From an uncultured Prevotellaceae bacterium (lineage in GTDB: Bacteria > Bacteroidota > Bacteroidia > Bacteroidales > Muribaculaceae), in the NCBI GenBank assembly GCA_937916085.1, contig CALGGO010000060.1, forward strand, positions 1,602-65,601: a stretch of DNA of 64,000 bases, read 5' to 3'. The translations under genes were made by a program, and so were the position numbers. This document shows, piece by piece, positions 11,266 through 63,182 of the stretch (position 1 is the first letter of the stretch; each line of letters starts with the position of its first letter). The notes below the pieces were generated by a model. The model was not told the DNA's origin, searched no databases, and saw only the letters and a program-made list of their open reading frames with translations.

Positions 11266-11383
11266 ATAGTTCACAGTTAAGAGTTCTGCATTGAGTTCTT
11301 TTTTCACTATATCCTGCCGCAAACGGCAAAAAACACCCCTATTCGGCAGAATATACACCATTTCGTAATGAAAGATTTGGGGT

Positions 11384-14221
11384 TTAGTGTGCGTCGAGCC
11401 AGTTGGTGGCGGTGCCGTGGCTGGCGGTGAGGCGCACACGGCCGTGGTAGGCGTTTTCCATCTCGCTGACAACGATTTGAGTCACTTTCTCGAGTTCGTT
11501 GGGAATTACGTCAAAGTTCAACTCGTCATGCACTTGGAGTATCATTTTTGATCGGATGCCCTCCTGCTCAAAGCGGCGATAGATGGCTATCATGGCAATC
11601 TTGATGACGTCGGCAGCGGTGCCCTGGATAGGGGCGTTGACGGCGTTGCGCTCGCTGAAGCTGCGCACCACAGCGTTGCGCGAGTTGATGTCGGGCAGCA
11701 TGCGTCGGCGGCCAAATAGCGTGGTCACATAGCCTTTCTCCCTAGCCTGCGCCACACTCCGCTCTATATATTCCTTCACCTTGGGGAAGGTCTCAAAATA
11801 TCCGTCAATCAGCATCTTAGCCTCGCTGCGAGGGATGTTGAGCCGCTGACTCAACCCGAATGCCGAGATGCCGTAGAGGATGCCGAAGTTGGCGGTCTTA
11901 GCCTTGCGGCGCTGGTCGCCAGTCACCTTGTCGAGGTCCTCATGATAGATTTTAGCGGCGGTGATGGCGTGGATGTCCTCATCGTGGGCAAAGGCGTCGA
12001 GCATGGTGGTGTCGTTGCTCAGGTCGGCAACGAGGCGCAGCTCAATCTGCGAGTAGTCGGCGCTGAAGAACACATTGCCGTCGGCAGGGATGAAGGCGCG
12101 GCGTATCTCCTTGCCGTCGTCACTACGCACGGGGATATTCTGCAAGTTAGGATTGGTGGATGAGAGGCGCCCTGTGGCGGTGACGGTCTGGTTATAGGTG
12201 GTGTGGATGCGTCCTGTGCGGGGATTTACAAGTGCCGGCAGGGCATTGACGTAGGTAGAGAGGAGTTTGCGCAGTCCTCGCAACTCCAAAATTTTATCAA
12301 CCAACGGATGCCGGTCGCGCAGCTTCATCAGCACCTCCTCGGTAGTGGAGTACTGACCTGTCTTAGTCTTCTTGGCTTTGGCATCGATTTTCAGATGCCC
12401 GAACAGCACCTCACCCACCTGTGCCGGCGAAGCGGTGTTTAACTCCATTCCCGCCAACTCGTGGCACTCATGGTCGAGGGCGTTGACCTGCTCGGAGAGT
12501 TTTACCGAATACTCGGCGAGCGCTTTCTCGTCGATGCGCGCGCCCGCCAGCTCCATGCTCGCCAACACTCTCACGAGTGGCATCTCAATGTCGGTGAGCA
12601 GATGCGTCATACCCTTGTCTTCCAGGCGTTTGTCGAGCTTGGGTTTCAGAGCGAGGGAGAGGTCTGCCATCTCGCATGCCCAGTTGATTAGCTTCTCGGG
12701 TTTTACCTCTGCAAACTTCCTCTGCTTTTTGCCCTTTGCTCCTATCAGGCTCTCCATGTTGATAGCCTGATAGTTGCATATTTCCTCGGCGATAAAACGG
12801 GTGCTGTGACTGCGCTCGGGCTGGAGCAGATAGTGGGCAACGGCGGTGTCGTAGTAGTCGCCACGATAGTTGATGCCCACATTGCTGAGCATCACGATGT
12901 CGCGCTTGATGTCGTTGCTCACCAGCTGCACCCTGCCGTCGAAGAGCGGCGACACGGCGCTCATCATCCATCCCATGTCGTCGAGGGGCATAAAGGCGGC
13001 ATGATAGCGCTCGCTGCTCACAGCAATGCCCACGAGGTGGGCGCGCATGGCTTCCTCGCCGTCGGCGACGAGGCACACGCCCACTGGCTCGCCAGCGGCA
13101 ACGAGTTTCTCCACAAGCTGTGCTGCCTCGCTGTCATCGGCAACAAGGCGGTAGTCATGCTCATGCGAGTCGATGTTGTCCATCTCCAGCACTGGCGGCT
13201 CCTGCTCGGCGATGTCTTTGGTGTCGAGGTCGTCGAAGAGCGACGGAAGCAACGGGTTCTTCTTGGGATGGTTCAAAATCTCAAGCTCGGCTCTCGACAC
13301 ATCTTTCAGGGCCTCGGCAGGCGCTGGCGCGTTCTTTACTCCCACATTGGCCTCGCCATGCTCGATGATGCGCACCGCCAGGGTGCGGAATTCCAATTCC
13401 TTAAACACCTTAGCCAACGCATGCATATTGGCAGGCTTGCGTCGCAGCAGCTCCTCGTCCCACTCCACCGGCACATCGGTCTTGATAGTGGCAAGGAACT
13501 TCGAGAACTTGATTTGCTCCACATTCTCGGTGACCTTGCGCTGTAATGCACCTTTGAGTTGGTCGGTATTGGCGAGAAGGTTCTCCACCGAGCCAAACTC
13601 GTGCACCAGCTTCTTGGCGGTTACCTCTCCCACGCCTGGGCAGCCAGGGATATTGTCAACGGCATCGCCCTGAAGAGCCAACAAGTCAATGACTTGCAGT
13701 GGACTGGTGAAGCCATATTTCGCATTTATCTCCTTGATGCCTAAGATTTCAGCCTCACCGCCTCGGCGTGCGGGATGGTAGATTTTCACCTTCTCGTTGA
13801 CGAGCTGCCCAAAGTCCTTGTCGGGAGTCATCATGTAGGTCTCAAAACCCTGCTCGCTAGCCACATGTGCCAGGGTGCCTATAACGTCGTCGGCTTCATA
13901 GCCTGGCACCTCAATCACGGGGATGTTGTAAGCCTCGATGATGCGCTTGATGTAGGGCACAGCGGTTTTGATGTCTTCGGGAGTCTCGTCACGGTTGGCT
14001 TTATACTCTTTATATGCCTCATGGCGGAAGGTGCCGCCTGGCGGGTCGAAGCACACGGCGATGTGCGTGGGTTGCTCCTTCTTGAGGACATCTTGCAGCG
14101 AGTTGACAAACCCGAAGATTGCCGACGTGTTAATGCCACTGGACGTAAACCGCGGGTTGCGCATGAGAGCATAATAAGCCCTGAAAATCATTGCGTAAGC
14201 ATCAAGGAGAAAAAGCTTCAT
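11384..14221 (-). CDS. polA: DNA polymerase I
   Basis: 945 aa. Has the 5'-3' exonuclease N-terminus (MKLFLLDAYAMIFRAYYA), and the family-A polymerase motifs DYSQIELR, RRKAKTANFGILYG and QVHDEL. Confidence 0.95.
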   Translation of the reverse strand: MKLFLLDAYAMIFRAYYALMRNPRFTSSGINTSAIFGFVNSLQDVLKKEQPTHIAVCFDPPGGTFRHEAYKEYKANRDETPEDIKTAVPYIKRIIEAYNIPVIEVPGYEADDVIGTLAHVASEQGFETYMMTPDKDFGQLVNEKVKIYHPARRGGEAEILGIKEINAKYGFTSPLQVIDLLALQGDAVDNIPGCPGVGEVTAKKLVHEFGSVENLLANTDQLKGALQRKVTENVEQIKFSKFLATIKTDVPVEWDEELLRRKPANMHALAKVFKELEFRTLAVRIIEHGEANVGVKNAPAPAEALKDVSRAELEILNHPKKNPLLPSLFDDLDTKDIAEQEPPVLEMDNIDSHEHDYRLVADDSEAAQLVEKLVAAGEPVGVCLVADGEEAMRAHLVGIAVSSERYHAAFMPLDDMGWMMSAVSPLFDGRVQLVSNDIKRDIVMLSNVGINYRGDYYDTAVAHYLLQPERSHSTRFIAEEICNYQAINMESLIGAKGKKQRKFAEVKPEKLINWACEMADLSLALKPKLDKRLEDKGMTHLLTDIEMPLVRVLASMELAGARIDEKALAEYSVKLSEQVNALDHECHELAGMELNTASPAQVGEVLFGHLKIDAKAKKTKTGQYSTTEEVLMKLRDRHPLVDKILELRGLRKLLSTYVNALPALVNPRTGRIHTTYNQTVTATGRLSSTNPNLQNIPVRSDDGKEIRRAFIPADGNVFFSADYSQIELRLVADLSNDTTMLDAFAHDEDIHAITAAKIYHEDLDKVTGDQRRKAKTANFGILYGISAFGLSQRLNIPRSEAKMLIDGYFETFPKVKEYIERSVAQAREKGYVTTLFGRRRMLPDINSRNAVVRSFSERNAVNAPIQGTAADVIKIAMIAIYRRFEQEGIRSKMILQVHDELNFDVIPNELEKVTQIVVSEMENAYHGRVRLTASHGTATNWLDAH

Positions 14222-14225
14222 AATT

Positions 14226-14498
14226 AGTTCATAGTTAAGAGTTAAGAGTTCACAGTTGTCAGTTAAGAGTTCACAGTTGTCAGTTAAGAGTTCACAGTTG
14301 TCAGTTCAGAGTTCACAGTTGTCAGTTCAGAGTTCACAGTTAAGAGTTCAGAGTTCATAGTTAAGAGTTAAGAGTTCACAGTTGTCAGTTCAGAGTTCAC
14401 AGTTAAGAGTTCAGAGTTCACAGTTAAGAGTTCAGAGTTCATAGTTCATAGTTAATAGTTAAGAGTTCAGAGTTCACAGTTGTCAGTTCAGAGTTCAA
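14226..14498. repeat. 39 consecutive heptamers AGTTNNN (NNN = CAC, GTC, AAG, CAG, CAT, AAT, CAA) with no phase slip
   Basis: Parsed by eye unit by unit. Fills the deoC-polA intergenic spacer, beginning 5 nt from the polA start codon. Confidence 0.95.
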
Positions 14499-14507
14499 AG
14501 CAACTAA

Positions 14508-14539
14508 AAACTATGAACTCTGAACTATAAACTGTGAAC
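14508..14539. repeat. Four heptamers of the same family in inverted orientation (AACT-type); can pair with the end of the array; candidate deoC terminator stem
   Basis: aactatgaactctgaactataaactgtgaact is the reverse complement of agttcac/agtttat/agttcag/agttcat words. It lies 3 nt downstream of the deoC stop on the minus strand. Confidence 0.7.
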
Positions 14540-14541
14540 TT

Positions 14542-15438
14542 TTAAAACACATTCTTGTCGGTGCCTGTGAAGGACTGGAAGAGGGCGTTGGCGAGGCTGG
14601 AAGCGCCGATGCGGAAGTAGCGGTTGTCGAGCCATTTCTCGCCGAGCACCTCTTTCACGATGGTGTAGTACTTCACTGCGTCCTCGGTGGTGCGGATGCC
14701 GCCTGCCGCCTTGAAGCCCACCATCACGCCATGCTTCTCGTAGTACTCCTTGATACACTGGCACATCACGTAGGCGGCCTCGAGCGAAGCGCCGGGATAA
14801 ATCTTGCCGGTAGAGGTCTTGATGAAGTCGGCGCCCGAGTACATCGCCAGGATTGATGCCTTCTTGATGTTGGCGGCAGTCTCCAGGCAGCCAGTCTCGA
14901 GGATCACCTTGAGCATCTTGCCGTGGCAAGCGTGCTTAATCTCGCTGATCTCGTCGCACAGCTCCTCGTAGGCCTCATCGAGGAAGTAGCCCATATTGAT
15001 GACGATATCCACCTCGTCGGCGCCGTCGGCAACGGCAAGGGCGGTCTCGGCGATTTTGGTCTCCAGATGTGCCTGCGAAGCGGGGAAGCTGGCGCTGCAC
15101 ACCACCACATCCACGTCGCTCACCTCAAGGTTAGCGCGCACCACCTGGGCGAAGTTGCTATACACGCATATTCCCGCCACGTTCTTGTAGTCGGGATAGT
15201 TGCGCCAGTATTCGTTCACCTTTTGGGTGAAAGCTGCCACGCTGCGCTCGCTGTCGGTAGTGCTCAATGTGGTGAGGTCCACCGTGTTAAGCAGGAACTC
15301 CTGCACCTCGCGGGTGTTGTTCTCGGCGGCGTGCTCCTCGATGATTTTTGCCACTTCGGCCTTTACCTTAGCGTCGTCTTCAGTCACGTTGCTGCCATTG
15401 ATAGCAGCCAAATACTTGTTTTCAATTTTTTCTGCCAT
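14542..15438 (-). CDS. deoC: Deoxyribose-phosphate aldolase (long form)
   Basis: 298 aa. GADFIKTSTGK Schiff-base lysine motif and DEVDIVINMG. Confidence 0.9.
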   Translation of the reverse strand: MAEKIENKYLAAINGSNVTEDDAKVKAEVAKIIEEHAAENNTREVQEFLLNTVDLTTLSTTDSERSVAAFTQKVNEYWRNYPDYKNVAGICVYSNFAQVVRANLEVSDVDVVVCSASFPASQAHLETKIAETALAVADGADEVDIVINMGYFLDEAYEELCDEISEIKHACHGKMLKVILETGCLETAANIKKASILAMYSGADFIKTSTGKIYPGASLEAAYVMCQCIKEYYEKHGVMVGFKAAGGIRTTEDAVKYYTIVKEVLGEKWLDNRYFRIGASSLANALFQSFTGTDKNVF

Positions 15439-15453: not shown

Positions 15454-15493
15454 CTAGACTTTCTAGATTATCTAGATATTCTAGACTTCTAGG
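15454..15493. repeat. 9-nt word array CTAGAYNNN x4
   Basis: ctagacttt/ctagattat/ctagatatt/ctagacttc, between the mazG-like stop and the deoC start. Confidence 0.85.
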
Positions 15494-15833: not shown

Positions 15834-15867
15834 CAGTTGTCAGTTATCAGTTGTCGGTTTCTTGATG

Positions 15868-15903
15868 AACAAGCTGACGCTTGCACTACAGAACACGACA
15901 GAT
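15868..15903. repeat. 36-nt intergenic element with a CAAGC-TGAC-GCTTG hairpin (copy 1 of 2)
   Basis: aacaagctgacgcttgcactacagaacacgacagat. The near-identical copy is at 51666-51702. Confidence 0.8.
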
Positions 15904-16263: not shown

Positions 16264-16499
16264 ATTTCCAAATGTCGCAGCACTTTGGTTTAACAATATT
16301 AGAGGGTTCTTTTGCAAGTTGGTGTTAGCCTGAGCCGCTCATTAGGATTTAACAAAACGTCGCTCAGATTTTTGTCACATTTGATTTTACTTATCCCAGT
16401 GCCGCATTTCAAGAAAAGGAAATCAGCAATGACATTGCAAAGATAAGATTTTCTTTTTATTCAAAGAAATATTTTAAAGATATTATGATAGTGAGTACT

Positions 16500-16826
16500 T
16501 CGTGGTTCTCGCCGTAGGCGACCATCTCGCATATTTGACCTCTCGCAAAGTTGCACCTGTCGGCGAAAGCAAAGCCGCGCAAGCGCGGTGTTTTTGTCAC
16601 ACGGAAAAAATCCTGCGTGAGCAGGCTTTGTGACGAGCTCCGCTCGCAGCTTTAGATAAAATGCTCACGCTCGCAAGGCTTTGTGCAAGCACAAACTTTG
16701 TCTCGCTTAATCGCATTTTTGTGAGATTATAATGCTGGTATACTGGGACTAATTTTAATTCCAATTTTCAATTAATTTTAAGCGCGTAGCGCGCCCCCTC
16801 GAGTGTATAACGCCACTGTGCCGGGT
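16500..16826. repeat. Mosaic mini-hairpin array, copy A
   Basis: A string of short stem-loops (cgcc-gta-ggcg, ccgcgc-aa-gcgcgg, cctgc-gtga-gcagg, ttgtgc-aa-gcacaa, gcgc-gta-gcgc) joined by linkers shared with copies B and C (gataaaatgctcacgctcg, tctcgcttaatcgcattttt). Confidence 0.8.
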
Positions 16827-16829
16827 GTG

Positions 16830-17282
16830 TCACTCACGCAGGCGTGAGTCGATGATGATGGTGACGGGGCCGTCGTTGATGAGCGACACCTGCATGTCGG
16901 CGCCGAAGACGCCACGCTGCACGGGCTTGCCCATTAATTGCTCCACCTCCTGGCAGTAGAGCTCATAGAGCGGCACGGCGAGGTCGTGGCCTGCGGCATG
17001 GATGTAGCTGGGGCGGTTGCCCTTGCGGGTGCTAGCGTTAAGGGTGAACTGGCTCACTGCCAGCACCTCGCCGCCGGCATCTACGATGTTGCGGTTCATC
17101 ACTCCAGCGTCGTCGTCAAAGACGCGCAGGTTCACCGTCTTCTGCGCCAGCCACCGCACGTCGTCCTCGGTGTCGCCCTCGCGCACCCCCACCAGCACCA
17201 TGTAGCCGCCGCCTATCGCACTATGCACCTCGCCGCCAATGGCTACCGATGCCTCTCTCACTCGTTGTATAACTATTCTCAT
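16830..17282 (-). CDS. dtd: D-aminoacyl-tRNA deacylase
   Basis: 150 aa. MRIVIQRV...SQFTL...GNRPSY...DGPVT is the canonical Dtd pattern. Confidence 0.9.
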   Translation of the reverse strand: MRIVIQRVREASVAIGGEVHSAIGGGYMVLVGVREGDTEDDVRWLAQKTVNLRVFDDDAGVMNRNIVDAGGEVLAVSQFTLNASTRKGNRPSYIHAAGHDLAVPLYELYCQEVEQLMGKPVQRGVFGADMQVSLINDGPVTIIIDSRLRE

Positions 17283-17339
17283 ATCAGTTGTCAGTTATCA
17301 GATGTCAGATGCAAAGTTACTATTTTTTTAGACATACTG

Positions 17340-17708
17340 ACGTGAGAAAAGAAGATTTCTGCGCCCTGCGGGCGAAATTAGAGCACTTCGTGCTAAAAAA
17401 TGCGATTAAGCGAGAGAAGACAAGAACTTGTTCTTTGTATTCCGAGCGTGAGCATTTTATCCAAATTGATGTTGCGCCCAAGGGCGCTAAAATTATTTTA
17501 AAATAAAATTTTAGTGCGAAGCACCACAATAATGTTAGAGCCAAAGGCTCTTTAATTTCCATGTGCTGTGGCACATGGCGACCGTTCCTGCGTAAGCAGG
17601 CTTTGCTTTCGCCTACAGGTGCAACTTTGCGAGAGAACAAATGTGGATTTTGATTTAATTTTAAGCGTGTAGCGCACCCCTTCGAGTGTCAAAAGCCACT
17701 GTTGGGAG
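17340..17708. repeat. Mosaic mini-hairpin array, copy B (contains the 140-nt core 17361-17500)
   Basis: The reverse complement of 17361-17500 is identical base for base to 23559-23698. 17575-17625 is inverted relative to 16530-16580. 17656-17708 repeats 16772-16825 in direct orientation. Confidence 0.9.
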
Positions 17709-17856
17709 CCCTTGCTGCTTGGGGGTTACCGAGCTTCATACTTGCAACCATTTTCACTGCTGGGATTTTGTTTAAGAAACAATCCGTTTCGTTGGTTTTT
17801 ATTTCTTATTTATTGAAAAGCAGCGATTTATTTTTTGCTTGTATATTTATAATGTA

Positions 17857-17864
17857 TAATTTTG
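17857..17864 (+). promoter_or_regulatory. Bacteroidota -7 box candidate (TAATTTTG)
   Basis: Matches TAnnTTTG, 132 nt upstream of the ATG at 17996. Confidence 0.35.
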
Positions 17865-17995
17865 CTTGCTTAATTATGCTAATTTTGACTTATCAAGCCT
17901 ATTACAATTAGTGGTTTCAAAGTTTGAAATTGAATTAAAAACAGCTGATTTAAATAGAGACAAACAATATATTTATTAACTAAACTTATCAATTT

Positions 17996-22680: not shown

Positions 22681-22702
22681 GAGAGCCCGCCAAGGCGGGC
22701 GG

Positions 22703-22783
22703 CGGACAGGTCGGACAGGTCGGACGGGTCGGACAGGTCGGACGAGTCGGACGGGTCGGACAAGTCGGACGGGTCGGACAAGG
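22703..22783. repeat. 9-nt tandem array CGGACRRGT x9
   Basis: cggacaggt/cggacaggt/cggacgggt/cggacaggt/cggacgagt/cggacgggt/cggacaagt/cggacgggt/cggacaagg in exact 9-nt steps. Confidence 0.95.
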
Positions 22784-48328: not shown

Positions 48329-48332
48329 TTTA

Positions 48333-51638: not shown

Positions 51639-51665
51639 TATTTTGTGTTGTCATTTTTATGGGCT

Positions 51666-51702: not shown

Positions 51703-51729
51703 GCTTGTTGAGGCTCTGTTTTCAGTTGA

Positions 51730-54288: not shown

Positions 54289-54291
54289 AAT

Positions 54292-54415
54292 AGTTAAGTT
54301 TCAAGTGTTAAGTTTTAAGTGTTAAGTAGTGGAGAGAGCGCTACGCGCGATTAGCGATTAGTTGCGCTACGCGCGATTAGAGATTAGAGAGGTTCTCGAT
54401 CCTCGATTCTCCATA
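54292..54415. repeat. About 125-nt spacer made of heptamer words (NNNTAAG, GATTAGN, TCGATYC) plus two GCGC-TAC-GCGC hairpins
   Basis: agttaag/tttcaag/tgttaag/ttttaag/tgttaag ... gcgctacgcgc gattagc/gattagt tgcgctacgcgc gattaga/gattaga/gaggttc/tcgatcc/tcgattc. Confidence 0.9.
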
Positions 54416-54417
54416 AA

Positions 54418-57231
54418 TTAGTTAGCGTCAATCTCGTTGATGATTTCTCCTAGTCGCTTGTTGGCGGCGATGTCGTAGTCGGGGAGGTCGCACGAGAGGA
54501 TGTAGCCCACTTTCAGATACTCTAACCAGGTCCACTTGAAGCCGTAGCGTGGCAAGCGGATGAGCGCCTTGCGGTCGTTGGGGTTATAGCCTTTCTCCCG
54601 CAGCTTGCGGTTGGCATGGTCGAGTTCTTCTAGCAGTTTCACTCCCGAGAGTCCATTGTGTGACGTGAGCATCTCCTCGCTGATGTTAAGCTTCAACCTG
54701 GCATTCTTCTCGAGGATGTTGCTCAGATGCTTGCTGTCGATGTAGTCAAACCCAAAGGTGGTGATAAAGTGGTTAAACTCCATCGCCAGATAGTCGGCGA
54801 TGATAGCCACGGCACTATCTTTGTCGAAGGACGTGAGATACTGGTCGATGCGCTTGGTGATGCGGTCGTGCATTCCCAGGAAGCGGTAAAGTCTGATGAG
54901 GTTGGTGGTCATGTCGCTCACGGCGGGGATGACGTCTTTGCACTTGGGCACCACATATTGTGTGAGGTATTCCTCTATCCAGTATTTCTCTACCATCGTC
55001 GCCACCTGTTCGGCTTGCGAGTTCACCATGCGGTTAGAGTTGAGCAGCTTGTTGATGTCGATGCCTTCGGCGGCAAGCATCTCGTTGCACTCCTCCTCGG
55101 TATCTACTCCTAGCGAGTCACACAGTTTCTCGAGGTTTTGTGCCCTCGACGCCTCAGTGCTGAGTCCAAACTGCATGAAGAGAGCTTTCTCGGAGTCGGG
55201 TTGCGATGTGGTGGTCACCGTGTTGTTGAGGGCGTTGTGGATTTTTTCATACAGGTGTGGCTCGTCAATCATCATGATGTCGAGCATCTTGCCAAAGGCG
55301 GCAGGGTCGGTGCCTTCGATTTTGCCTAGCTGCAGGTTGGCCTGTGCCGCTTGGCGTTTAGCTTTCTTGATTTCGTCGTCGGGCGAGCCGCTGTGGTAAT
55401 ACTTGGAAAGCAGGCTCTTGAGCATTGCCACGAGACGTGTTATCTCATCGCCAAACATGTTGTCTCTTGCCTGTTTCACGCGTGGTGCTAGCTGGTTGAG
55501 GGCGGCGATGATGGGCTTGGTGCCGTCGTTGTTGAGTGTCGCCGCGCTGTCCCAAGCTTGGTTGGCATCGACAAAGTGCTGCTGCACGAAGTCGTAATGC
55601 ACGAAGGAGTCCTTGAGGCACTGCATGAAGTTGGGGAACGCCGCTGGGATGATTTCCTCGGTCTCGGGCGACTTGGTGTTGGGGTTGTAGCCAGTGAACG
55701 ACTTTGTGGAATACTTGAAGTCGCGTAGCATGAAGATGCTGCGGAAGGGGTGTCCCGTAGTCCACTGGTTGAACCAGTGCGTCTGGTCTTCGTCGGTGTT
55801 GGCTCGCAGCACTTCTTTCTCGAGCACAATCTTGAAGCGGTTGTCCCAGCGTCGGCGCAGCTCTTCGAGTTTGTTGGGGGAGTCGTTGGTCTGGTATTCC
55901 AGGTCGAGGTTGAAGAAAGTGCTGATGATGAACAATGGCGACATCTGTGTGTCGTGCATGAAGGTGTCGCGCTGTGCCGCTGTCTCACCCACGTTGTTCT
56001 TCACCCATTGCTCGAGGACGATGCCCATCTTGCTCTCGGCACTCTGCATATTGTTGTGGCAGAGCATGAGGGAGCTGATGCGCTTGGTGTCGCTGTAGCG
56101 GTTGAAGAGGTAGGTCACCTTGCCGCGTCGCAGCACTACCGAGAGGTTCTTGCCGTTGGTTATCTTCTCCGATGCCATGTTTTCGGGACGGCGCTCGCCG
56201 GGGAAGTCGAGGATGTCGAGGCAGGAGAGGAAATTGCGGGTCTCGCTCTCGAGAGTGGGCAGCGACATATATAGCTCGGCGACGAGAGCGCTGAGCTCGC
56301 CCTTGCGCATCTCTACCGACATGTTCTGCTGGGTGGTGACAATCGTGGTGGGACGATAGTCGGGAAGTTCTATCTCGCTCTCGTCATAGATCTCGTCGAG
56401 GCGTGCCACGTCGAGCAGCGTGCCATGCTTCTTGAGCACCGCGTCGAAGGGCACATACACCGTGGAGTTGAACCTGATGGAGCGGTAGGCGGTGATGAGG
56501 GTGTCGAAGAGGCGGTTGATGGATGGGTTGTCGAACCACAGCAGCTTTATTGCCGAGAGGAGCTGGTCGTCGGTAAGGCGGTTCACGTTGAACAGCAAGA
56601 ATGAGAACAGCCCTGATTCGGGGTCGGTGAGATTTGCGACCCGCTGCTTCATGGTGGAGTTGCGCAGGTAGTCATAGATGTCCATCACGTCGTCCTGGGT
56701 GAGGATGGGTGAGGGGTTGGGCACCGACGACACCTCAATCGAGTCGCAGTAGTGACGTATGTAGTCAATTTTCTTGATTTCGGAGTTGTCGTAGTCGGTC
56801 TGCGTGTGATAAGCCTCACACAAGACTAGGATGATGTCGGCAACCGACAGCAGGCGTGCCTTGAGGTAGCCCTCGGGGACGGCGGGGTCGGTGTTGGAGG
56901 TAAATCGTGTCACCACGCCGGTGGCCTCTACGCGCGAGTTGGGGTTGCTGGGGTTTATCTCGTCGATGAAGTTGTATTCGCGGCGGCCGTCGGTGACGGT
57001 GAAGGGCTTGCCGGGGTCGCTCATCAGCGCGCTCACGAGGTAGGACTTGCCCATCTGGCTCTCGCCGAAGGCTGCGGTGGAGCACCGCTCATCGGCGGCA
57101 AACTGAATCTTCTTGAATGCGCGTCGCAGGTTTACCAACTGCTCGAGGTAGTTCTGTCTTTCGCTATCGGGGACATTCAACTGCCATGAAATGGCTTTCT
57201 CTACGATGTGAAGATATTGGTTGATATTCAT
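54418..57231 (-). CDS. SrfC-like large P-loop NTPase (dynamin-like G motifs)
   Basis: 937 aa. Walker A/G1 GESQMGKS (nt 57043-57066), ATGVVTRF, DILDFPGE (DxPG as in dynamins). Lies directly downstream of a SrfB-like gene. Confidence 0.55.
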   Translation of the reverse strand: MNINQYLHIVEKAISWQLNVPDSERQNYLEQLVNLRRAFKKIQFAADERCSTAAFGESQMGKSYLVSALMSDPGKPFTVTDGRREYNFIDEINPSNPNSRVEATGVVTRFTSNTDPAVPEGYLKARLLSVADIILVLCEAYHTQTDYDNSEIKKIDYIRHYCDSIEVSSVPNPSPILTQDDVMDIYDYLRNSTMKQRVANLTDPESGLFSFLLFNVNRLTDDQLLSAIKLLWFDNPSINRLFDTLITAYRSIRFNSTVYVPFDAVLKKHGTLLDVARLDEIYDESEIELPDYRPTTIVTTQQNMSVEMRKGELSALVAELYMSLPTLESETRNFLSCLDILDFPGERRPENMASEKITNGKNLSVVLRRGKVTYLFNRYSDTKRISSLMLCHNNMQSAESKMGIVLEQWVKNNVGETAAQRDTFMHDTQMSPLFIISTFFNLDLEYQTNDSPNKLEELRRRWDNRFKIVLEKEVLRANTDEDQTHWFNQWTTGHPFRSIFMLRDFKYSTKSFTGYNPNTKSPETEEIIPAAFPNFMQCLKDSFVHYDFVQQHFVDANQAWDSAATLNNDGTKPIIAALNQLAPRVKQARDNMFGDEITRLVAMLKSLLSKYYHSGSPDDEIKKAKRQAAQANLQLGKIEGTDPAAFGKMLDIMMIDEPHLYEKIHNALNNTVTTTSQPDSEKALFMQFGLSTEASRAQNLEKLCDSLGVDTEEECNEMLAAEGIDINKLLNSNRMVNSQAEQVATMVEKYWIEEYLTQYVVPKCKDVIPAVSDMTTNLIRLYRFLGMHDRITKRIDQYLTSFDKDSAVAIIADYLAMEFNHFITTFGFDYIDSKHLSNILEKNARLKLNISEEMLTSHNGLSGVKLLEELDHANRKLREKGYNPNDRKALIRLPRYGFKWTWLEYLKVGYILSCDLPDYDIAANKRLGEIINEIDAN

Positions 57232-57240
57232 AATTATGTC

Positions 57241-57320
57241 GTTTATCGTTTATCGGAGTTCGGAGTTCGGGAATCGGGGATCGGGATCGGAGAACTCTGA
57301 ACTCTTAACTGAGAACTCCT
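57241..57320. repeat. Heptamer array spanning the SrfB-like stop codon and the 18-nt spacer
   Basis: gtttatc/gtttatc/ggagttc/ggagttc/gggaatc/ggggatc/gggatc/ggagaac/tctgaac/tcttaac/tgagaac. It encodes the C-terminal tail ...SSEFSDPDPRFPNSELR. Confidence 0.9.
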
Positions 57321-60300
57321 TTAAGTCGGTGGTTGCAATATTCAAGTTAAATTCTCCTGAGTCGAGCCAGTAGCATTGTGGGTCGTTGATGCTCTGCACT
57401 TGCAGCATGAAGTCGTCGGCCTTTAGTTCCTCGCCGTCGCTGCCGGTGACCGCGACGATGGTGAGGTGCTCCTTGTCCTCGTCGTAGGCCTCGCGCTCTA
57501 TCTCAAAGGTGAAAGGTCCCTTCTTGAACAACTCCTCGCGGTATTCGCGCAGCATGCGTTGCTGCTGCTCGGGGGTGAGAATCTTGTTCTTGCTGATGCG
57601 CTCCTTGATGCGGCGGTCGTCGATGTCGAGGACGAAGAATGGTCGTAGCGGATATATGTCGATGTCAAACTGCTTGGCACCGATGTAGCACGGGAAGGAG
57701 TTGATGGTGATGCGTCCGTTGTTGACGGTGGGAGTGATGATGCATTCCTCCTTGGGGATGCCGCCCATGCGGTAGAAGCTCTCGGTGGTGGGCACCAGCT
57801 TGTCGCTCAGGTCGCTCAGGTCGAGCGAGAACTCGTTGAGGCCTCCCGCCATCGACGCCAGGTAGCCAATCATGGCACCCACAGGGACGATGCTCTTGGT
57901 GTCGTGCATGTAGCCGTTCTCGTCTTTGAAGGGATACCAGCGCCCTATGCGGTACTTGCCCAGGACAATAAGTCGGTTGGGGCTCACGGGGAAGTACTTG
58001 AGGAAGCAGTCCTTGATGGGCTTGAGCATGGTGGGGCGTCCCGAGAGCACCACGATGTCGCAGTCGTGGGCGTAGAGCAGTGTGGATATCGACTCGATGA
58101 GAGAGTCGAGCGATTTCTCCACATGCTGCGAGAGCACTTTGTGGTCGTAGGTCCACACCACTTCGCTGAGCTCAAAGCCAAAGCGCTCTTTGAAGGCTTC
58201 ACACACTATGTCGCTGGGCTTGCTGCTCTGACCAAACATCTCGTCGTGGCCAATCTCAAGGTAACGCTCGCCCTCGCTCAGCAGGTTGAGGAAGCGGTAC
58301 ATGACGGGCACATTGACCTGCATATTGAAATCTCGGCGCATGATGCGGTCTTTGAAGGTCATCATGTTGTTGTCCTGACCGAAGAAGTGATACAATATCT
58401 TATAGGCTTCCTGGCGGCTCTTGCCCATCTTCTCGGTGAGGTGGCGGTAGAGGATGCCGTTGTCGCTCTCGATAATCACGTTGTGAACCAGCTGCTGCAG
58501 CATGTCGTCGCCCGCCACGTTGAAGCTGTCCCAGTAGATGGGGTCGGGCTTGATTTGCGAGGGGTTGCTCTCGTTGTAGCGATACTGGCACACCATCACG
58601 TCGGTGGTGCCGGCGCCTATATCTACCGACCCCACTCTGAGGGTGTCGCACTCCATGTCGTCGATTTTGCGTTTCTTGCCATAGAGCTTGAAGAAGAGGT
58701 CGCTGCGGTTCTTGTAGCGCTCGCAGAACTGGGCGTAGAGATACACAAACTGCGAGCAGGTGGCCTCGTCGTAGTACCACTGCTTGTGCTCATCGTCGTG
58801 GTAGCGCTGTGGCTGGTTGCCGGGAATCACCTGCATGTGCAGGGCGATGCTGTTGGGGTCCACGATGTGATGATAGGAATTGATGATTTTCACCGCATCG
58901 TCGAAGCTGCTGTAGAGGGCTTGGCGCTCCACCCTCGACATTGCGGTGGGGCAGGTGATGATCACGCGCTCGAGGCGGCGCGGGGTGTTGCGCAGGTCGT
59001 GGCGCTCACGCGACTGGAAGCTGTTGATTTGGGTTAGCGCCTGCTCTATTATCTCGATGAAGGCGAGGGTCATGAGCGAGCGGCGAGAGTAGTGCGCCCC
59101 TATGCCGTAGCCCTCGGCGTTTACTGTGCCGTCGTCGTTGAGGAAGCAGGTGAGGCCCTCGATGATGGGTGGCAGCGAGTAGTTCTCGTCGCCAATGTTG
59201 ATGAATCGCCACTCGTTCTCGGTGCGCTTGCCGTCCCACAGGTAGCGCTTGGGGCTGGAGTTGGTGGAGAGGGTCTCAAAGCCCAGGTTGAGTGCCGTGG
59301 CCTCGTGGTTGAGGTAGCGGGCCTCACGTCCGAGCCTGATGATGCTGGGCCACACAAACTGGTTGCTGCCGGCAATGTTCTTGCCTATGGTGACCTTGCG
59401 GAACGCCAGCCGCATGTCGAAGGTCTCTTCCACGCGGTTAAGGTCGCCGTTAGGGAGCAATATGTGGGTGAAATTCTGGAGTCGCAGCGCATCGACCTTG
59501 GTGAAGTCTTGCGTGAACTTGTTGTTCTCGAAGAGCAGCGCCGAGGTGCGTGAGTTGCCGATGTCGATGATCATCTCCACGTTGACGATGTTCACGTCGC
59601 GGTCGCGCATGAGCTTGACGGTGGGGAAGAAGTCGTCGAGGCTGCTCAGGTACTTGATGAGCATGAGGTAGGTGGCGAGGAACTCATATTTGTGCCTGCC
59701 GTCTTTGAGCTCGAGCACGTCGAAGTTCTTGGCGTCGGGGTAGGCGATTTCCATCAGGTAGTCGCGCACCCAGTTGTTGTTCCAGGTGCAGTAGTCGATG
59801 AGCTGTCGCTCGTTGCCGCACAGCCCAAAGAGTTTCTCGCTCTCGCCGTCGCTCATAAACACGGGGAACTCTTTGTAGGCGTCGAGGGCGTTGTAGCGCG
59901 CCTGGGTGTCGAAGGCGAGCACCACGTCGGCGGTGAGGATGCCGGCATTGGTCTCGCGCGGCACTATCATGAACTTGCACCAGTTGTAGGGACCCTTCTT
60001 GTAGTCGCCGGTGTCGTCCTGCTCGATAAACGGCATGGGCAGCCACACGTTGAAGTAACGGCTCAGGAACTTGTTGTTGGCAGCTAGCTTTGAGAAGAAG
60101 ATGCCTAGAGACTCTTCCTCGCCCGCGCCAACGTTGAACTGCTTGACCTCGGGGTTGGCGAGAATCACCGCCTCGCTGGTGGTGAGCTTGTTGTCATTGT
60201 CGAGATACCCTTTCTCGCGCAGCTGCGAGGTGAGCACCACCACCTGGTTGCTCAGGGTGTAGGCAAACTCGAGTTTCCACTGAAAGCGCTCGTCGTCGAA

Positions 60301-60399
60301 CGACTCGGCAAAGCGGCACTTAAAACCCGCATTGAGGTTGATCTCGATGCGTTTCGACAGTAGCTGAATGCCCGAATTGGCGATTAATGAATGGTCCAT
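57250..60399 (-). CDS. SrfB-like actin/Hsp70-fold (ASKHA) ATPase
   Basis: 1049 aa. Phosphate-binding motifs IIDIGNSRTSALLFE and GSVDIGAGTTDVMVCQY. SSPKRYLWD, ITCPTAMSRVE, VVLSGRPTMLKPI and RIGRWYPF match my recollection of the SrfB family. Confidence 0.6.
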   Translation of the reverse strand: MDHSLIANSGIQLLSKRIEINLNAGFKCRFAESFDDERFQWKLEFAYTLSNQVVVLTSQLREKGYLDNDNKLTTSEAVILANPEVKQFNVGAGEEESLGIFFSKLAANNKFLSRYFNVWLPMPFIEQDDTGDYKKGPYNWCKFMIVPRETNAGILTADVVLAFDTQARYNALDAYKEFPVFMSDGESEKLFGLCGNERQLIDYCTWNNNWVRDYLMEIAYPDAKNFDVLELKDGRHKYEFLATYLMLIKYLSSLDDFFPTVKLMRDRDVNIVNVEMIIDIGNSRTSALLFENNKFTQDFTKVDALRLQNFTHILLPNGDLNRVEETFDMRLAFRKVTIGKNIAGSNQFVWPSIIRLGREARYLNHEATALNLGFETLSTNSSPKRYLWDGKRTENEWRFINIGDENYSLPPIIEGLTCFLNDDGTVNAEGYGIGAHYSRRSLMTLAFIEIIEQALTQINSFQSRERHDLRNTPRRLERVIITCPTAMSRVERQALYSSFDDAVKIINSYHHIVDPNSIALHMQVIPGNQPQRYHDDEHKQWYYDEATCSQFVYLYAQFCERYKNRSDLFFKLYGKKRKIDDMECDTLRVGSVDIGAGTTDVMVCQYRYNESNPSQIKPDPIYWDSFNVAGDDMLQQLVHNVIIESDNGILYRHLTEKMGKSRQEAYKILYHFFGQDNNMMTFKDRIMRRDFNMQVNVPVMYRFLNLLSEGERYLEIGHDEMFGQSSKPSDIVCEAFKERFGFELSEVVWTYDHKVLSQHVEKSLDSLIESISTLLYAHDCDIVVLSGRPTMLKPIKDCFLKYFPVSPNRLIVLGKYRIGRWYPFKDENGYMHDTKSIVPVGAMIGYLASMAGGLNEFSLDLSDLSDKLVPTTESFYRMGGIPKEECIITPTVNNGRITINSFPCYIGAKQFDIDIYPLRPFFVLDIDDRRIKERISKNKILTPEQQQRMLREYREELFKKGPFTFEIEREAYDEDKEHLTIVAVTGSDGEELKADDFMLQVQSINDPQCYWLDSGEFNLNIATTDLKEFSVKSSEFSDPDPRFPNSELR

Positions 60400-60440
60400 C
60401 TTGTTTTATAGTTTGATTTCGTTTTTATCGTGATTTATCG

Positions 60441-60448
60441 CAAAATTA
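60441..60448 (-). promoter_or_regulatory. Bacteroidota -7 box candidate (minus strand TAATTTTG) for the SrfB-like operon
   Basis: The plus strand reads caaaatta, 42 nt upstream of the start at 60399. A second candidate, caaagtta, lies at 60492-60499. Confidence 0.4.
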
Positions 60449-60650
60449 CTTCTAATACTTTCTCTTTCCCTAAATATTGCAAAATCAATGCCAAAGTTAA
60501 TGTTTTTTTGTCATAGACGATACAGATTTCTTTTTTTTAACTAATGTCTTAGAAACCTAGTCAATGTTTTAGAGTTTGTAAAAAACAAAAAGAGACTCAA
60601 GGTCAAGACCCCAAGTCTCAAAAAAATCTTCTTTAACCACTAAACTTACA

Positions 60651-61358: not shown

Positions 61359-61593
61359 AGCAATAATAGTCTATAGGTGTTTATCAGGCACAAAGATAAC
61401 GCTCATTTTTGATAATGGCAAATAGTTTTGCTTATTTCTACGGAACTATGAAACTTCCCACGCGTCAATCTCACAAAAATCACATCGTGATGTAAGAATA
61501 TTAACTACGGATTATTCTGATTGTTTTGATAAAATGCCCCAAATGCCTAATAACCGATCCCATGTATATTTCGTTAATTGATAAAATTGTTCT

Positions 61594-63135
61594 CTACATG
61601 TTAAAATAGCTGCTGCGGTCGAGGTTGCGGTAGCCGATGGCTTCCATGATGTGGTGCTGGCGGACGGTGACGCTGGCGTCGAGGTCGGCGATGGTGCGGG
61701 CGACTTTGAGGATGCGGTCGTAGGCTCTCGCGCTCATGTTCATCTTGGTGATGGCCTCGCGTAGTTTTTCCATTCCTTCGGTGTCGGGTTCGGCGTATTT
61801 GTGGAGCAGGGCTGTCGTCATCTGTGCGTTGCAGTGGATGCCGGGATGGTTCTTGTAGCGCAGGCTCTGGATGGCGCGGGCTTTGATGACGCGTTCCCTA
61901 ATCGCAGAGCTTGGTTCGCCTGGCGCTTTGCTCGACATCTGGTCGAAGTTCACTGGCTGCACTTCGACCTGCAGATCGATGCGGTCAAGCAACGGCCCTG
62001 AAATCTTACCCATATATTGATGCCGCTGATGCGGTGTGCAGATGCACTGCTTGGTGGGGTGTCCGTAGTAACCGCAAGGGCATGGATTCATCGACGCCAC
62101 AAGCATGAACGAGGCGGGATAGTCGATGCTGTACTTGGCTCGGCTGATGTTAATGTGGCGGTCCTCAAGCGGCTGGCGCATCACCTCAAGGACGCTGCGG
62201 TTGAACTCAGGCAACTCGTCAAGAAAGAGTACCCCATTGTGGGCAAGACTAATCTCCCCAGGCGTGGGATAAGTGCCGCCGCCAACCAGAGCCACTGGCG
62301 AAATAGTGTGATGCGGAGCGCGATAGGGTCGCACGGAGAGTAGGGTAGTGCCTTGCGAGAGTTTGCCTGCCACGCTGTGGATTTTGGTAGTCTCGAGAGC
62401 CTCTCCGAGCGTGAGTGGCGGCAGGATTGACGGCAGTCGCTTCGCCATCATCGACTTGCCGCTGCCCGGCGAACCGATAAGCATGATGTTGTGCCCTCCG
62501 GCGCATGCCACCTCAAAGGCGCGTTTCACCATTTCCTGGCCTTTCACCTCGCTGAAGTCGTAGGTGAAAGCGCTTTGCGCGCGTGCAAACTCGGCGCGGG
62601 TGTCAACCACCGTAGGCTCAAGGATTATCTCGTTTTTGAAGAACTGAATCACCTCGGTGATGTTCTCTACTCCATAGACGTTGAGGTTATTGACTACGGC
62701 AGCCTCGGTGGCGTTGAAGCGGGGCAGGATAAAGCCGTCGAGCTGCATCTCGCGGGCGAGGATTGCCATGGGCAGCGCGCCCTTGATGGGTTTCACCGAG
62801 CCGTCGAGCGAGAGTTCGCCCATAATCATATAGCGACCCAGCTTTTCGGTGCCTATTTTTTCGTCGCTGGCGAGGATGCCGATGGCGATGGGCAGGTCGT
62901 AGGCTGAGCCTTCCTTCTTGATGTCGGCGGGCGACATATTGATTACCACCGCCTTATGAGGGAATTTGATCCCCACGTTGGCAATGGCGCACTTCACGCG
63001 TTCAAAACTCTCTTTCACCGCCGCGTCGGGAAGTCCCACGAGCACGTAGCCCGTGCCCCAGTCCACCGAGACCTCAATCTCGACGGCGATGGCGTCAATT
63101 CCCTGCAGTGCGGCACCAAGTATTTTGTTTAGCAT
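61594..63135 (-). CDS. comM: YifB/ComM family Mg-chelatase-like AAA+ ATPase
   Basis: 513 aa. N-terminal Lon-protease-like domain (DLPIAIGILA), Walker A GSPGSGKS, Walker B VLFLDELPEF, and the C-terminal ARAYDRILKVARTIADL. Confidence 0.9.
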   Translation of the reverse strand: MLNKILGAALQGIDAIAVEIEVSVDWGTGYVLVGLPDAAVKESFERVKCAIANVGIKFPHKAVVINMSPADIKKEGSAYDLPIAIGILASDEKIGTEKLGRYMIMGELSLDGSVKPIKGALPMAILAREMQLDGFILPRFNATEAAVVNNLNVYGVENITEVIQFFKNEIILEPTVVDTRAEFARAQSAFTYDFSEVKGQEMVKRAFEVACAGGHNIMLIGSPGSGKSMMAKRLPSILPPLTLGEALETTKIHSVAGKLSQGTTLLSVRPYRAPHHTISPVALVGGGTYPTPGEISLAHNGVLFLDELPEFNRSVLEVMRQPLEDRHINISRAKYSIDYPASFMLVASMNPCPCGYYGHPTKQCICTPHQRHQYMGKISGPLLDRIDLQVEVQPVNFDQMSSKAPGEPSSAIRERVIKARAIQSLRYKNHPGIHCNAQMTTALLHKYAEPDTEGMEKLREAITKMNMSARAYDRILKVARTIADLDASVTVRQHHIMEAIGYRNLDRSSYFNM

Positions 63136-63150
63136 AGCGTCTTATTTTAG

Positions 63151-63182
63151 CTAACAAGTAAACGAGCTAACAAGCAAACAAG
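63151..63182. repeat. Octamer word array NNAACRAG x4
   Basis: ctaacaag/taaacgag/ctaacaag/caaacaag, directly upstream of the comM start on the minus strand. The same word family occurs at 42531-42575. Confidence 0.85.

Follow-up and report, generated by a model that had tools for sequence, protein, structure and literature searches.

Heptamer arrays at gene junctions of an uncultured Muribaculaceae bacterium: intergenic repeats of a known kind, probably filtered by the messenger

The 64,000-nucleotide (nt) stretch of DNA analysed here (the window; contig CALGGO010000060.1 from an uncultured bacterium) raises the question why so many of its spacers between genes consist of words of 7, 8 or 9 nt repeated in phase, and what generates and keeps them. 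The original prediction, made from the letters alone, had placed such arrays at almost every native gene boundary and outside three AT-rich blocks regarded as foreign, and had ascribed them to a process specific to this genome. The answer to which the present analysis leads is that the arrays are heptameric simple sequence repeats (SSRs), accompanied by some of 8 and 9 nt. With high confidence they are classified as a kind of intergenic repeat already known; that they are generated by slippage and then filtered by the constraints on leaders and 3′ ends is probable, a mechanism held with moderate confidence.

Number, place and orientation of the arrays

Arrays were sought with Tandem Repeats Finder (TRF), by direct reading and with a lag-match detector, and every array listed in the original prediction was present at its place or within a few bases of it. 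Direct reading also bore out that the cores, often of 4 nt, are invariant and that the remaining positions of the unit are free. In intergenic DNA the lag-match profile peaks at 7, 14 and 21 (0.330 at lag 7 versus about 0.28 at neighbouring lags); in coding sequence it holds a period-3 signal only. For counting, an array had to have at least three units and at least 72% lag identity, and the null was 200 dinucleotide-preserving shuffles per spacer. The spacers of the window contain 20 lag-7 arrays, located in 12 of 40 spacers, where shuffles give 0.54 ± 0.75 (maximum 3). At lag 8 there are 3 arrays (0.65 expected) and at lag 9 there are 4 (0.44 expected), whereas at lags 5, 6 and 10–12 the numbers are near the shuffle expectation. 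Applied to the window, the autocorrelation at lags 7, 8 and 9 that had been proposed as a genome-wide check yields an excess at all three, which at 7 is far above what composition alone gives and at 8 and 9 is smaller. Altogether, arrays cover about 15% of the spacer bases. It should be noted that the copy number of the longest array, that upstream of polA (about 39 units), may be uncertain, since independent assemblies break within it (L001, Logan contigs); exact copy numbers are possibly wrong because contigs break inside arrays. A CRISPR array was considered and rejected: the units are 7–9 nt long, stand head to tail and have no unique spacers between them, whereas CRISPR arrays consist of 23–50-nt repeats plus spacers. 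The arrays and their surroundings are as follows (D and I numbers are labels of repeat families).

11268–11288, no strand assigned: three AGTTNNN units directly after the stop of a YgjP-like gene (10564–11265, plus strand), in the spacer where this gene and polA converge; a borderline case, lag-7 matches at 10 of 14 positions falling slightly short of the threshold
14226–14497, minus strand: about 39 AACTNNN units, a leader abutting the polA ATG (14221), with higher-order periods of 21 and 63 nt (families D1 and D2, spacing 21/14 nt)
14502–14540, minus strand: five AGTTNNN units directly after the stop of the DeoC-family gene (14542), inverted partner of the first AACT units
15454–15493, minus strand: four to five 9-mers TCTAGANNN, filling the 59-nt spacer from the MazG-like stop to the DeoC-family ATG (15438); the word also occurs in the deoC-polA spacer of L005, L009, L011, L016 and L022
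15835–15855, minus strand: three AACTGAN units abutting the MazG-like ATG (15833)
17286–17313, minus strand: four CATCTGA/AACTGAN units, the entire stretch from the −7 box (TAACTTTG, 37 nt from the ATG) to the dtd ATG (17282)
22703–22783, plus strand: nine 9-mers CGGACRRGT just 3′ of a GC hairpin (22685–22700), downstream of the gene for a 1539-residue Ig-like surface protein (D5)
22793–22827, plus strand: five AACTNNN units, found by TRF and by reading (D7)
22950–22983, plus strand: two copies of the 16-mer CTTGTGAGCTTGTTTA, each made of two 8-mers CTTGTKNN, 22 nt upstream of the ATG at 23006 (TRF match 100%, score 68); missing from the original prediction
23457–23481, plus strand: 3.5 AATGCNG units overlapping the TAA stop of the NfeD-like gene (TAATGCAG...)
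23755–23796, plus strand: six AACTNNN units that terminate, as predicted, exactly at the ATG (23797) of the SPFH/Band-7 gene
24763–24783, plus strand: three AATGCNG units right after the SPFH stop, followed by a classic hairpin and T-run terminator (24791–24812)
38574–38608, plus strand: five AACTNNN units immediately upstream of the leuS −7 box TACCTTTG, and therefore within the promoter and not in the leader (D7); missing from the original prediction
41436–41525, plus strand: inverted octamers ACAAGCTN and NAGCTTGT, which occupy the leuS-acyltransferase junction as a single hairpin; 41533 is the position of the true ATG
42531–42575, plus strand: five octamers CTAACAAG, beginning at the acyltransferase stop
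42672–42706, plus strand: inverted octamers CTYGTTNG, 13 nt upstream of the Ham1/RdgB-like ATG (42719)
43317–43388, no strand assigned: three ACGAATTNN words and inverted copies, a hairpin with a U-run on both strands between convergent genes (I17)
46880–46914, minus strand: five GATNNNN units (GATAAAC, GATCCCC), 8 nt upstream of the likely ATG (46871) of a sulfatase-family gene
46945–47000, minus strand: composite of GCGC-N3-GCGC mini-hairpins, each followed by two to three GATTAGN units; inverted copy at 54338–54391, 83% (I2)
48333–48381, minus strand: seven GATNNNN units, ending 4 nt before the ATG at 48328; unpaired in the fold
48384–48405, minus strand: three GATTAGN units at a stop codon (48404), adjoining a GCGCTTCGCGC hairpin
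50179–50213, minus strand: four AACNGNN units abutting the ATG at 50178
54293–54327, minus strand: five ACTTAAC/ACTTGAA units, 5 nt upstream of the subtilase ATG (54288); missing from the original prediction. The ACACTTA word of this array also occurs upstream of polA in L002, L003, L005, L006 and L033
54338–54391, minus strand: GATTAGN and GCGC-hairpin composite, oriented relative to the operon opposite to 46945–46998 (I2)
54391–54415, minus strand: three units GAGAATC, GAGGATC and GAGAACC, 2 nt after the stop at 54418
57241–57288, minus strand: seven GATNNNN units upstream of the ATG at 57231, which also supply the final codons of the SrfB-like open reading frame (ORF) together with its TAA stop
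57289–57316, minus strand: four AGTTNNN units within the 3′ end of the SrfB-like ORF, with weak pairing to GAACTCC units (z −1.4)
63151–63182, minus strand: four octamers CTTGTTNN in the 82-nt junction upstream of the Mg-chelatase-like ATG (63135)

The arrays are therefore not scattered at random: as had been claimed, they are sited after stops and before starts. This does not mean that almost every native boundary carries one. Among spacers of at least 18 nt, 18 of 34 have an array, and 16 of 28 if native spacers are considered, so that "many" is the appropriate word. Likewise, the absence of arrays from the AT-rich islands is literally correct inside the blocks and fails as a contrast, because 2 of 6 island spacers have an array as compared with 16 of 28 native ones (Fisher p = 0.39). 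The three blocks contain only about 1.9 kb of non-coding DNA in total, and the native promoter-bearing spacers at 16318–16829, 37392–37597, 60400–60650 and 61359–61593 are likewise without arrays.

A stronger correlate than native versus island is the type of spacer, operon-internal versus promoter-bearing. TAnnTTTG is the consensus of the −7 promoter box of Bacteroidetes. Each upstream spacer was searched for it, a box being counted when 22–91 nt from the ATG and boxless spacers when at least 40 nt long. Arrays were found in 12 of 14 spacers without a box and in 2 of 10 with one (Fisher p = 0.0027); the two box-bearing spacers are those of dtd, where the array is all there is between box and ATG, and of leuS, where the AACT array lies upstream of the box. 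By this contrast, what the arrays mark is junctions inside operons, short leaders and 3′ ends, and not native DNA in itself. In the minus-strand run of eight genes (60399 to 44907), for example, the one promoter-like box lies upstream of the SrfB-like gene; clear arrays are present in 5 of the 7 internal junctions, and the other two (49157–49215 and 51639–51729) have weak ones only. With respect to phase variation (contingency loci, where repeats within an ORF or between promoter elements switch expression, typically of surface or virulence genes), most arrays lie outside ORFs and promoters and beside housekeeping genes, the exceptions being 38574–38608 (leuS promoter) and 57250–57316 (SrfB ORF tail). 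In the latter, the SrfB-like ORF draws its final 22 codons (…KEFSVKSSEFSDPDPRFPNSELR*) and its TAA stop from array sequence (AGTTNNN, then GATNNNN), and gain or loss of units would alter the C-terminal tail and the stop of the protein.

For a wider sample, relatives were collected by comparing the polA product (11384–14221, minus strand) with one genome per species, which gave 80 loci. (L-numbers label the loci and contigs used for comparison: relatives, metagenome contigs as L082–L201, and L242, L275 and others from IMG/VR.) The nearest loci, with 80–95% identity, are from metagenome-assembled genomes (MAGs) of uncultured Muribaculaceae, "Prevotellaceae" and Bacteroidales from rumen, gut and bioreactors; a second tier at 60–69% identity includes Sodaliphilus, and more distant Bacteroidota follow. 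Loci with polA at least 80% identical are referred to as the clade and the 60–69% tier as the sister group. Together with the proteins (the translated ORFs of the window are Bacteroidota-like), these 80 loci assign the window to the Muribaculaceae/Bacteroidales; a cyanobacterial origin, which the STRR-like appearance of the arrays (see below) had suggested, was rejected on these grounds. A bioreactor-metagenome contig in ENA (L001) encodes a PolA identical to that of the window and is from the same strain, and metagenome DNA runs containing the region come from gut, bioreactor, wastewater and bovine sources.

The window and 19 close relatives contain 142 lag-7 arrays, 130 of them non-coding and 12 coding. 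Within 30 nt 5′ of an ATG there are 50 arrays, with the sense words AACTNNN (including literal TAACTGA), ACACTTA, GATAAAC and GATCCCC and with a sense composition of 43% A, 23% C, 26% T and 8% G. Those lying within 30 nt 3′ of a stop only (55 arrays) have the words AGTTNNN, AATGCAN, GAGGATC/GGGGATC, GGTTTAT and GATTAGN. After removal of arrays that share 16-mers, 28 pre-start arrays have more C than G and 2 have more G than C (p = 9e-7). Leaders with arrays (A.46, C.18, G.07, T.29) are composed much as those without (A.41, C.17, G.11, T.30). Pre-start arrays contain 0.27 AUG per 100 nt in sense and 1.03 in antisense, and the mean number of reading frames closed by a stop is 2.45 in sense versus 1.68. 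Array orientation is thus governed by the mRNA, and pre-start arrays resemble the ordinary leaders of this organism, only in more extreme form. An SD-like (Shine-Dalgarno) motif precedes just 5% of the long ORFs of the clade. Initiation in Bacteroidetes has been described as proceeding without use of Shine-Dalgarno sequences, with low structure, upstream A and a depletion of AUG near starts (PMC6847099), rules with which the composition, the AUG depletion and the few SD motifs found here agree.

Hairpins, turnover and the spread of the words

Strong RNA folds are found at junctions whose post-stop array and following pre-start array are reverse complements of each other. At the DeoC-polA junction (14400–14545, minus strand) the fold has −50.7 kcal/mol (z −9.2) and at the leuS-acyltransferase junction (41436–41525) −40.5 kcal/mol (z −6.9); both hairpins are without a U-run, and the next gene follows. 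The fold of 43300–43400 (−42 kcal/mol, z −8.2) is followed by CUUCUUUUAU, and the opposite strand is T-rich also. Because of this U-run on both strands, 43317–43388 is a predicted bidirectional intrinsic terminator between convergent genes, the only array hairpin that combines a GC hairpin with a U-run. The 22703–22783 region folds with −53.8 kcal/mol (z −3.65). Arrays of a single orientation beside an ATG are unpaired in the folds, and the junction at 63130–63220 is unstructured (z 0.15). Pairing of 42531–42575 with 42672–42706 as one long hairpin was rejected, the first 146 nt giving z −0.2. The DeoC-polA hairpin is conserved in 5 species. As to the leuS junction, a contig of a relative (90–95% identity) in a gut poly-A metatranscriptome links the end of leuS to the acyltransferase by 15 nt, where 41434–41536 of the window has a hairpin array of 101 nt. 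A near relative can thus do without the array at this junction.

The comparison across species that had been suggested to date the arrays was run on the polA loci, and a single lineage proved to be highly enriched in arrays: each kb of spacer holds 1.89 lag-7 arrays in the clade, as compared with 0.21 in the sister group and 0.32 in more distant loci. Among the 80 loci, the words AATGCA, TCTAGA, ACACTTA and GATAAAC are nearly restricted to the clade. At the DeoC-polA junction the flanking genes are 80–98% identical in 19 species, whereas the word family of the spacer differs. AGTT/AACT is found in the window, L004, L040, L010 and L012; the order AATGCAN, CTAGANNN, ACACTTA in L005, L009, L011 and L016; 14 AATGCAN units in L013; GAGGATC, CCCTCTC, ACACTTA in L033; and TCAGANN/TCTGANN in L014. 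The type does not depend on polA similarity: L002 (95%) is unlike the window, and L010 and L012 (86%) are like it. Relatives at 60–69% polA identity have ordinary spacers. Even within one type the copy number changes, the polA leader having about 39 AACT units in the window and about 8–10 at the same site in L004 and L040; the AACT tract shows duplication steps of 14, 21 and 63 nt. At the NAD-kinase-YgjP junction the arrays vary between species in the same way. Since sister species have different word families in one orthologous spacer, both copy number and word family turn over fast at orthologous junctions.

Array-rich lineages are found sporadically elsewhere (Parabacteroides sp. PF5-6 (L047), L067, L030, L077), with other words and the same layout, the G-rich arm after the stop and the C-rich arm before the start. 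In four metagenomes the contig depth within arrays is 10–90 times that of the flanks, and the flanks are many and different, so that the words must be highly multi-copy in those metagenomes. Far outside the clade, (AATGCAN)x4 was found at no fewer than 120 loci in metagenome contigs of GC content 0.34–0.70 from soil, peat, termite gut and other sources, and (AATGCAN)x3 at no fewer than 119 loci in IMG/VR. Two of the viral contigs, L242 and L275, carry portal, capsid and tape-measure genes and are true tailed phages; the tailed-phage contigs with AATGCAN have about 61% GC, and L242 carries 12 arrays in 14 kb. Among the matches listed, an AATGCAN array starts in AATGCA sense at the stop of an ORF of at least 80 codons in 29 of 101 metagenome and 59 of 161 viral cases, as compared with 5 and 9 in the opposite sense. 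The proportion of SD motifs in these metagenome and viral contigs, considered as a hint to their taxonomy, is about 20%, a value confounded by spurious ORFs at high GC. A survey of its own may be worthwhile for the orientation rule, which applies to metagenome and phage contigs that are unrelated. With the same words and orientation rules in tailed phages and, as published, in other phyla (PMC4679880; PMC4692102), the process is not specific to this genome, and this part of the original prediction has to be abandoned. Two contigs stand out for their arrangement: L251 has about nine copies of an inverted AATGCAA/TTGCATT hairpin module, and L243, from the viral collection, has TTGGTCN heptamers of cyanobacterial type together with ATGCATT arrays.

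What the arrays are, and what could make and keep them

Heptameric repeats between genes have been described several times. GGGNATC heptamers of Xanthomonas and Nostoc are biased to intergenic DNA, prefer spacers between co-oriented ORFs and are depleted between divergent ones; they overlap stop codons, are transcribed, vary between species and occur as inverted pairs, their function being unknown, and it is as sense strand that the G-rich strand follows a stop, and as antisense strand that it precedes a start (Rehm et al., 2015; PMC4692102). The arrays of the window likewise have a 7-nt unit, overlap stops, vary between close species and have inverted pairs capable of stem-loops. GGGGATC and GGGAATC occur literally (46884–46901, 48365–48378, 57267–57288), and the strand rule is followed in that 46880–46914, 48333–48381 and 57241–57288 are C-rich in sense before an ATG and GAGGATC is sense after the stop at 54418. 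They differ in that many word families coexist, the G-rich one being a minority, and in that the host belongs to the Bacteroidales, without Shine-Dalgarno use. A G-quadruplex reading of the GGGGATC arrays was rejected, as in the window at most 2–3 tracts of three or more G are consecutive versus the four needed; longer runs of G-tracts are found only in the relatives L022 and L033.

TAACTGA repeats directly preceding start codons have been reported from marine Beggiatoaceae, from cyanobacteria and from five Bacteroidetes (2–14 sets per genome in the latter), with one reverse set after a stop (MacGregor, 2015; PMC4679880). The window resembles this system in having an AACT-core heptamer that stands forward a few nt before starts and reverse after a stop, in intergenic and SD-poor surroundings and with no functional theme downstream; sense AACT arrays abut the ATGs at 14221, 15833, 17282, 23797 and 50178. 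Of exact TAACTGA the window has single units within AACTGAN arrays (15835–15855, 17286–17313), and (TAACTGA)2–4 is present in L004, L033 and L040. The differences are that the unit of the window is variable in its final three positions (AACTNNN), that many other families are present, and that array density and the filling of whole junctions exceed what is reported for Bacteroidetes (PMC4679880).

Hairpins of cyanobacterial short tandemly repeated repetitive (STRR) sequences, located between hupS and hupL, have been proposed to stabilise the transcript or to couple translation (PMC2670836). The window shares with them 7-bp intergenic units that are capable of forming hairpins in intercistronic spacers; in the strict sense the arrays are not STRRs, the window being from another phylum (Muribaculaceae/Bacteroidales). 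Its units presumably also differ from the canonical cyanobacterial ones. As summarised in two later papers, long SSRs (LSSRs) with units of 5–11 nt, predominantly heptamers, are in sporadic, lineage-specific excess and were proposed to originate by polymerase slippage with a footprint of about 7 nt; neither Bacteroidales nor Muribaculaceae are among the rich genomes in these summaries (Mrazek, 2007, via PMC4679880 and PMC4692102). The arrays of the window have the features of such repeats: they are longer than expected by chance, biased to non-coding DNA, depleted at promoters and variable at the same locus. Because location, words and strand rules match those published, we regard the arrays with high confidence as belonging to the known kind of heptameric intergenic repeat (STRR, Mrazek, Rehm, MacGregor). 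What had not been described before is such arrays in this host lineage, at this density and with so many word families side by side, their association with junctions that have no promoter, and their agreement with the composition of leaders in a bacterium without Shine-Dalgarno use. An abundant gut and rumen lineage thus joins the few groups that fill operon junctions with heptamer arrays.

How could such arrays come about? Most probably, replication slippage or unequal recombination would create them and change their length by 7, 14 or 21 nt at a time, and inverted arms would arise by template switching or inverted duplication. Selection would then retain only those arrays and orientations that the mRNA tolerates or profits from: before starts, an unstructured, A-rich and AUG-free leader suited to the Shine-Dalgarno-independent initiation of Bacteroidia; after stops, hairpins for 3′-end formation or for stabilisation of the upstream cistron. 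Most arrays would accordingly be self-propagating filler shaped by translation and transcript constraints, and no dedicated, genome-specific system for making spacers would be required. The 19 sister species with conserved flanks and wholly different arrays at one junction are a natural experiment that sets translation tuning without Shine-Dalgarno against tolerated filler. There is also a practical side: arrays break short-read assemblies and mislead the calling of starts and stops (one ORF here ends inside an array), and MAG pipelines for the clade should expect them.

Several findings weigh against slippage followed by messenger filtering. Direct evidence for slippage is lacking, since in the four metagenomes the contigs stop at the arrays and no within-population length variation can be read. 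The bias after stops is weaker than that before starts (17 non-redundant arrays with more G than C, 9 with more C than G; p = 0.17). Post-stop arrays are rich in AUG (3.97 per 100 nt) because of the AATGCA word, and the model leaves the AATGCAN case unexplained. Covariation at the DeoC-polA hairpin is not supported, 1 of 26 pairs being compensatory in five near-identical sequences; that no signal is seen is explained by these being too alike. No RNA run matching 46000–55000 was found, and the one poly-A metatranscriptome with relatives gave short contigs only, at 90–95% identity and unusable for 3′ ends. A small vocabulary is also reused at unlinked loci and across species, phyla and phages, which random slippage plus a loose compositional filter does not obviously predict. 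This reuse could be due to a sequence-specific reader or to a copying mechanism.

A reader is the subject of one alternative, which we consider unlikely: the arrays would be multimeric sites for a sequence-specific protein that binds single-stranded RNA or DNA with a footprint of about 7 nt per domain, and would constitute a post-transcriptional regulon, as was proposed by MacGregor for TAACTGA with S1, Csp or CsrA-type proteins as readers (PMC4679880). Candidates would be ribosomal protein S1, a cold-shock/OB-fold protein or an RRM protein, with a separate reader for each word family and a separate site for it, be it after the stop, in mid-spacer or before the start. Invariant 4-nt cores within otherwise variable units are what such sites would look like, and the strict strand rule relative to the mRNA, the recurrence in several species of the order AATGCAN, CTAGANNN, ACACTTA, ATG, and the identical words in distant lineages and phages point in the same direction. 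The unrelated families that sister species use at one orthologous junction, with the flanking genes unchanged, are hard to reconcile with a gene-specific site. Moreover, the array-bearing genes are functionally unrelated (polA, dtd, mazG-like, SPFH, sulfatase, SrfB), array composition equals that of ordinary leaders, and no candidate protein was identified in this analysis.

A copying mechanism would be at work if the arrays, wholly or in part, were small mobile or copy-pasted elements spread by a transposase or by gene conversion, of the type of repetitive extragenic palindromes (REPs) and bacterial interspersed mosaic elements (BIMEs), of MITEs (miniature transposable elements with inverted repeats at their ends) or of cyanobacterial SDRs. 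This would account for the shared vocabulary and for the wholesale replacement of spacers, and seems improbable to us. The window resembles REP/BIME systems in the intercistronic and operon-3′ sites and in hairpins able to stabilise upstream mRNA or to terminate. A 54-nt GATTAG plus GCGC composite, which looks REP-like, is present in both orientations (46945–46998 and 54338–54391, 83%), with a partial copy at 48384–48418; REP-like, too, is a cluster of hairpins in a 201-nt repeat (17361–17561 and 23498–23698). The 10–90-fold depth of arrays with many different flanks, and a spacer type that does not track polA similarity (L002 versus L010 and L012), would also be expected of mobile elements. 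REPs are palindromes of fixed sequence, however, and not tandem 7-mers with variable positions. In the window only the 54-nt composite (2.5 copies, both orientations) behaves as a fixed element; most arrays have neither fixed ends and length nor terminal inverted repeats (TIRs) or target site duplications (TSDs), and their unit number and variable positions vary in the manner of tandem repeats. No transposase is associated with arrays in the window, nor was a gene for a REP-associated tyrosine transposase (RAYT) seen there, and Rehm et al. likewise found no link of the GGGNATC repeats to mobile elements (PMC4692102).

There is a bolder reading, to which we attach a rather small probability: not slippage filler but a small heptamer "grammar", common to several phyla, would mark gene junctions by orientation and would be read by a conserved machine or written by an undiscovered repeat-copying activity. 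AATGCAN would start at the stop, AACTNNN, GATNNNN and ACACTTA would end at the start, G-rich and C-rich complements would form hairpins between them, and the words would be common to Bacteroidales, cyanobacteria, Beggiatoaceae, Xanthomonas and tailed phages. If this were true, an OB-fold protein or S1, for example, could read a 7-nt register and couple termination to re-initiation without Shine-Dalgarno pairing. Finally, that the arrays are a chance product of base composition or an artefact of short-read or MAG assembly is next to impossible: contigs do break within arrays, and exact copy numbers may be wrong, but chance as the source of the arrays is already refuted by the 20 that are seen where dinucleotide shuffles predict 0.5, identical arrays at identical positions recur in 19 species that were assembled independently as well as in further assemblies of this strain, and strand and position rules exist.

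Islands, inserts and other repeats of the window

Gene content was assigned by Pfam. From its start to Dtd the window encodes the C-terminus of an NAD kinase, a defence island, a YgjP-like protein, PolA, a DeoC-family aldolase, a MazG-like protein and Dtd, followed by the Ig-like surface protein and then NfeD and SPFH proteins. Further genes are two paralogous sulfatase-family genes, those for MetRS, LeuS, an acyltransferase and Ham1, and an AAA_14/DUF4143 gene. The eight-gene run on the minus strand encodes SrfB-like, SrfC-like (Virul_Fac) and subtilase proteins, three unknowns, a BACON-domain protein and a sulfatase. This cluster (44907–60399), apparently one transcription unit, places SrfB-like and SrfC-like genes of "virulence factor" Pfam families together with a subtilase gene in a commensal member of the rumen/gut Muribaculaceae. 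The sulfatase-family membrane protein paralogues (24787–26856 and 44907–46871) are both on the minus strand, 20.1 kb apart, and 71–79% identical at the DNA level. No Rfam match was obtained at the gathering threshold across the window, and none at E up to 1 in 16300–18000; a search of the window for tRNA and tmRNA found none.

The block at 368–10560, regarded as foreign in the original prediction, is indeed an insertion: genes 876–10453 are found only in the window and in L001 of the same strain, and L003, L004, L005 and L022 have an empty site, in which 66–108 nt separate the NAD-kinase gene from the YgjP-like gene and the spacer itself is filled with arrays. The island is of low-GC defence type, with an SNF2/PLD helicase, an SLFN-AlbA_2 ATPase, an Eco57I-type enzyme and one unknown gene. 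In its gene 4172–6130 there is a 21-nt (7-codon) tandem repeat (5663–5871, 6.7 copies, 90%), which is coding and unrelated to the spacer arrays. The AT-rich 918-nt "spacer" at 33173–34090 contains a truncated ORF (33565–33730) encoding ...LSLFSGCGGMDLGF, then a stop. The peptide resembles what we take to be motif I of cytosine-5 DNA methyltransferases, and for this reason a restriction-modification gene seems to have left a remnant in the spacer.

The AAA_14/DUF4143 ATPase gene (43475–44731) lies in an insert of about 1.5 kb with a 34-nt direct repeat (94%) at 43379–43412 and 44884–44917 (D20). What is repeated is the right arm of the terminator hairpin with the ACGAATT word, together with its U-run, so that the insert either went into the terminator or duplicated it. 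At the edges of the same insert, a repeat of 36 nt (TATTTACTTTTTTTGCGTAAATACGC...) is found three times. The two copies of the 201-nt repeat mentioned above are inverted and 97% complementary and bracket 5.9 kb with the gene for the 1539-residue Ig-like surface protein and nfeD. The surface protein gene is absent between dtd and nfeD in L003, L004 and L022, and the 5.9-kb segment could be invertible or mobile. The 201-nt repeat itself is a chain of small GC hairpins (REP/BIME-like) without a match in Rfam, and partial copies lie at 16530–16576 and 16764–16819. A short hairpin word, GYRCAAGCGTCAGCTTGTT, which is related to the AACAAGCT octamer family, occurs in two unrelated minus-strand junctions, 15858–15885 and 51676–51700.

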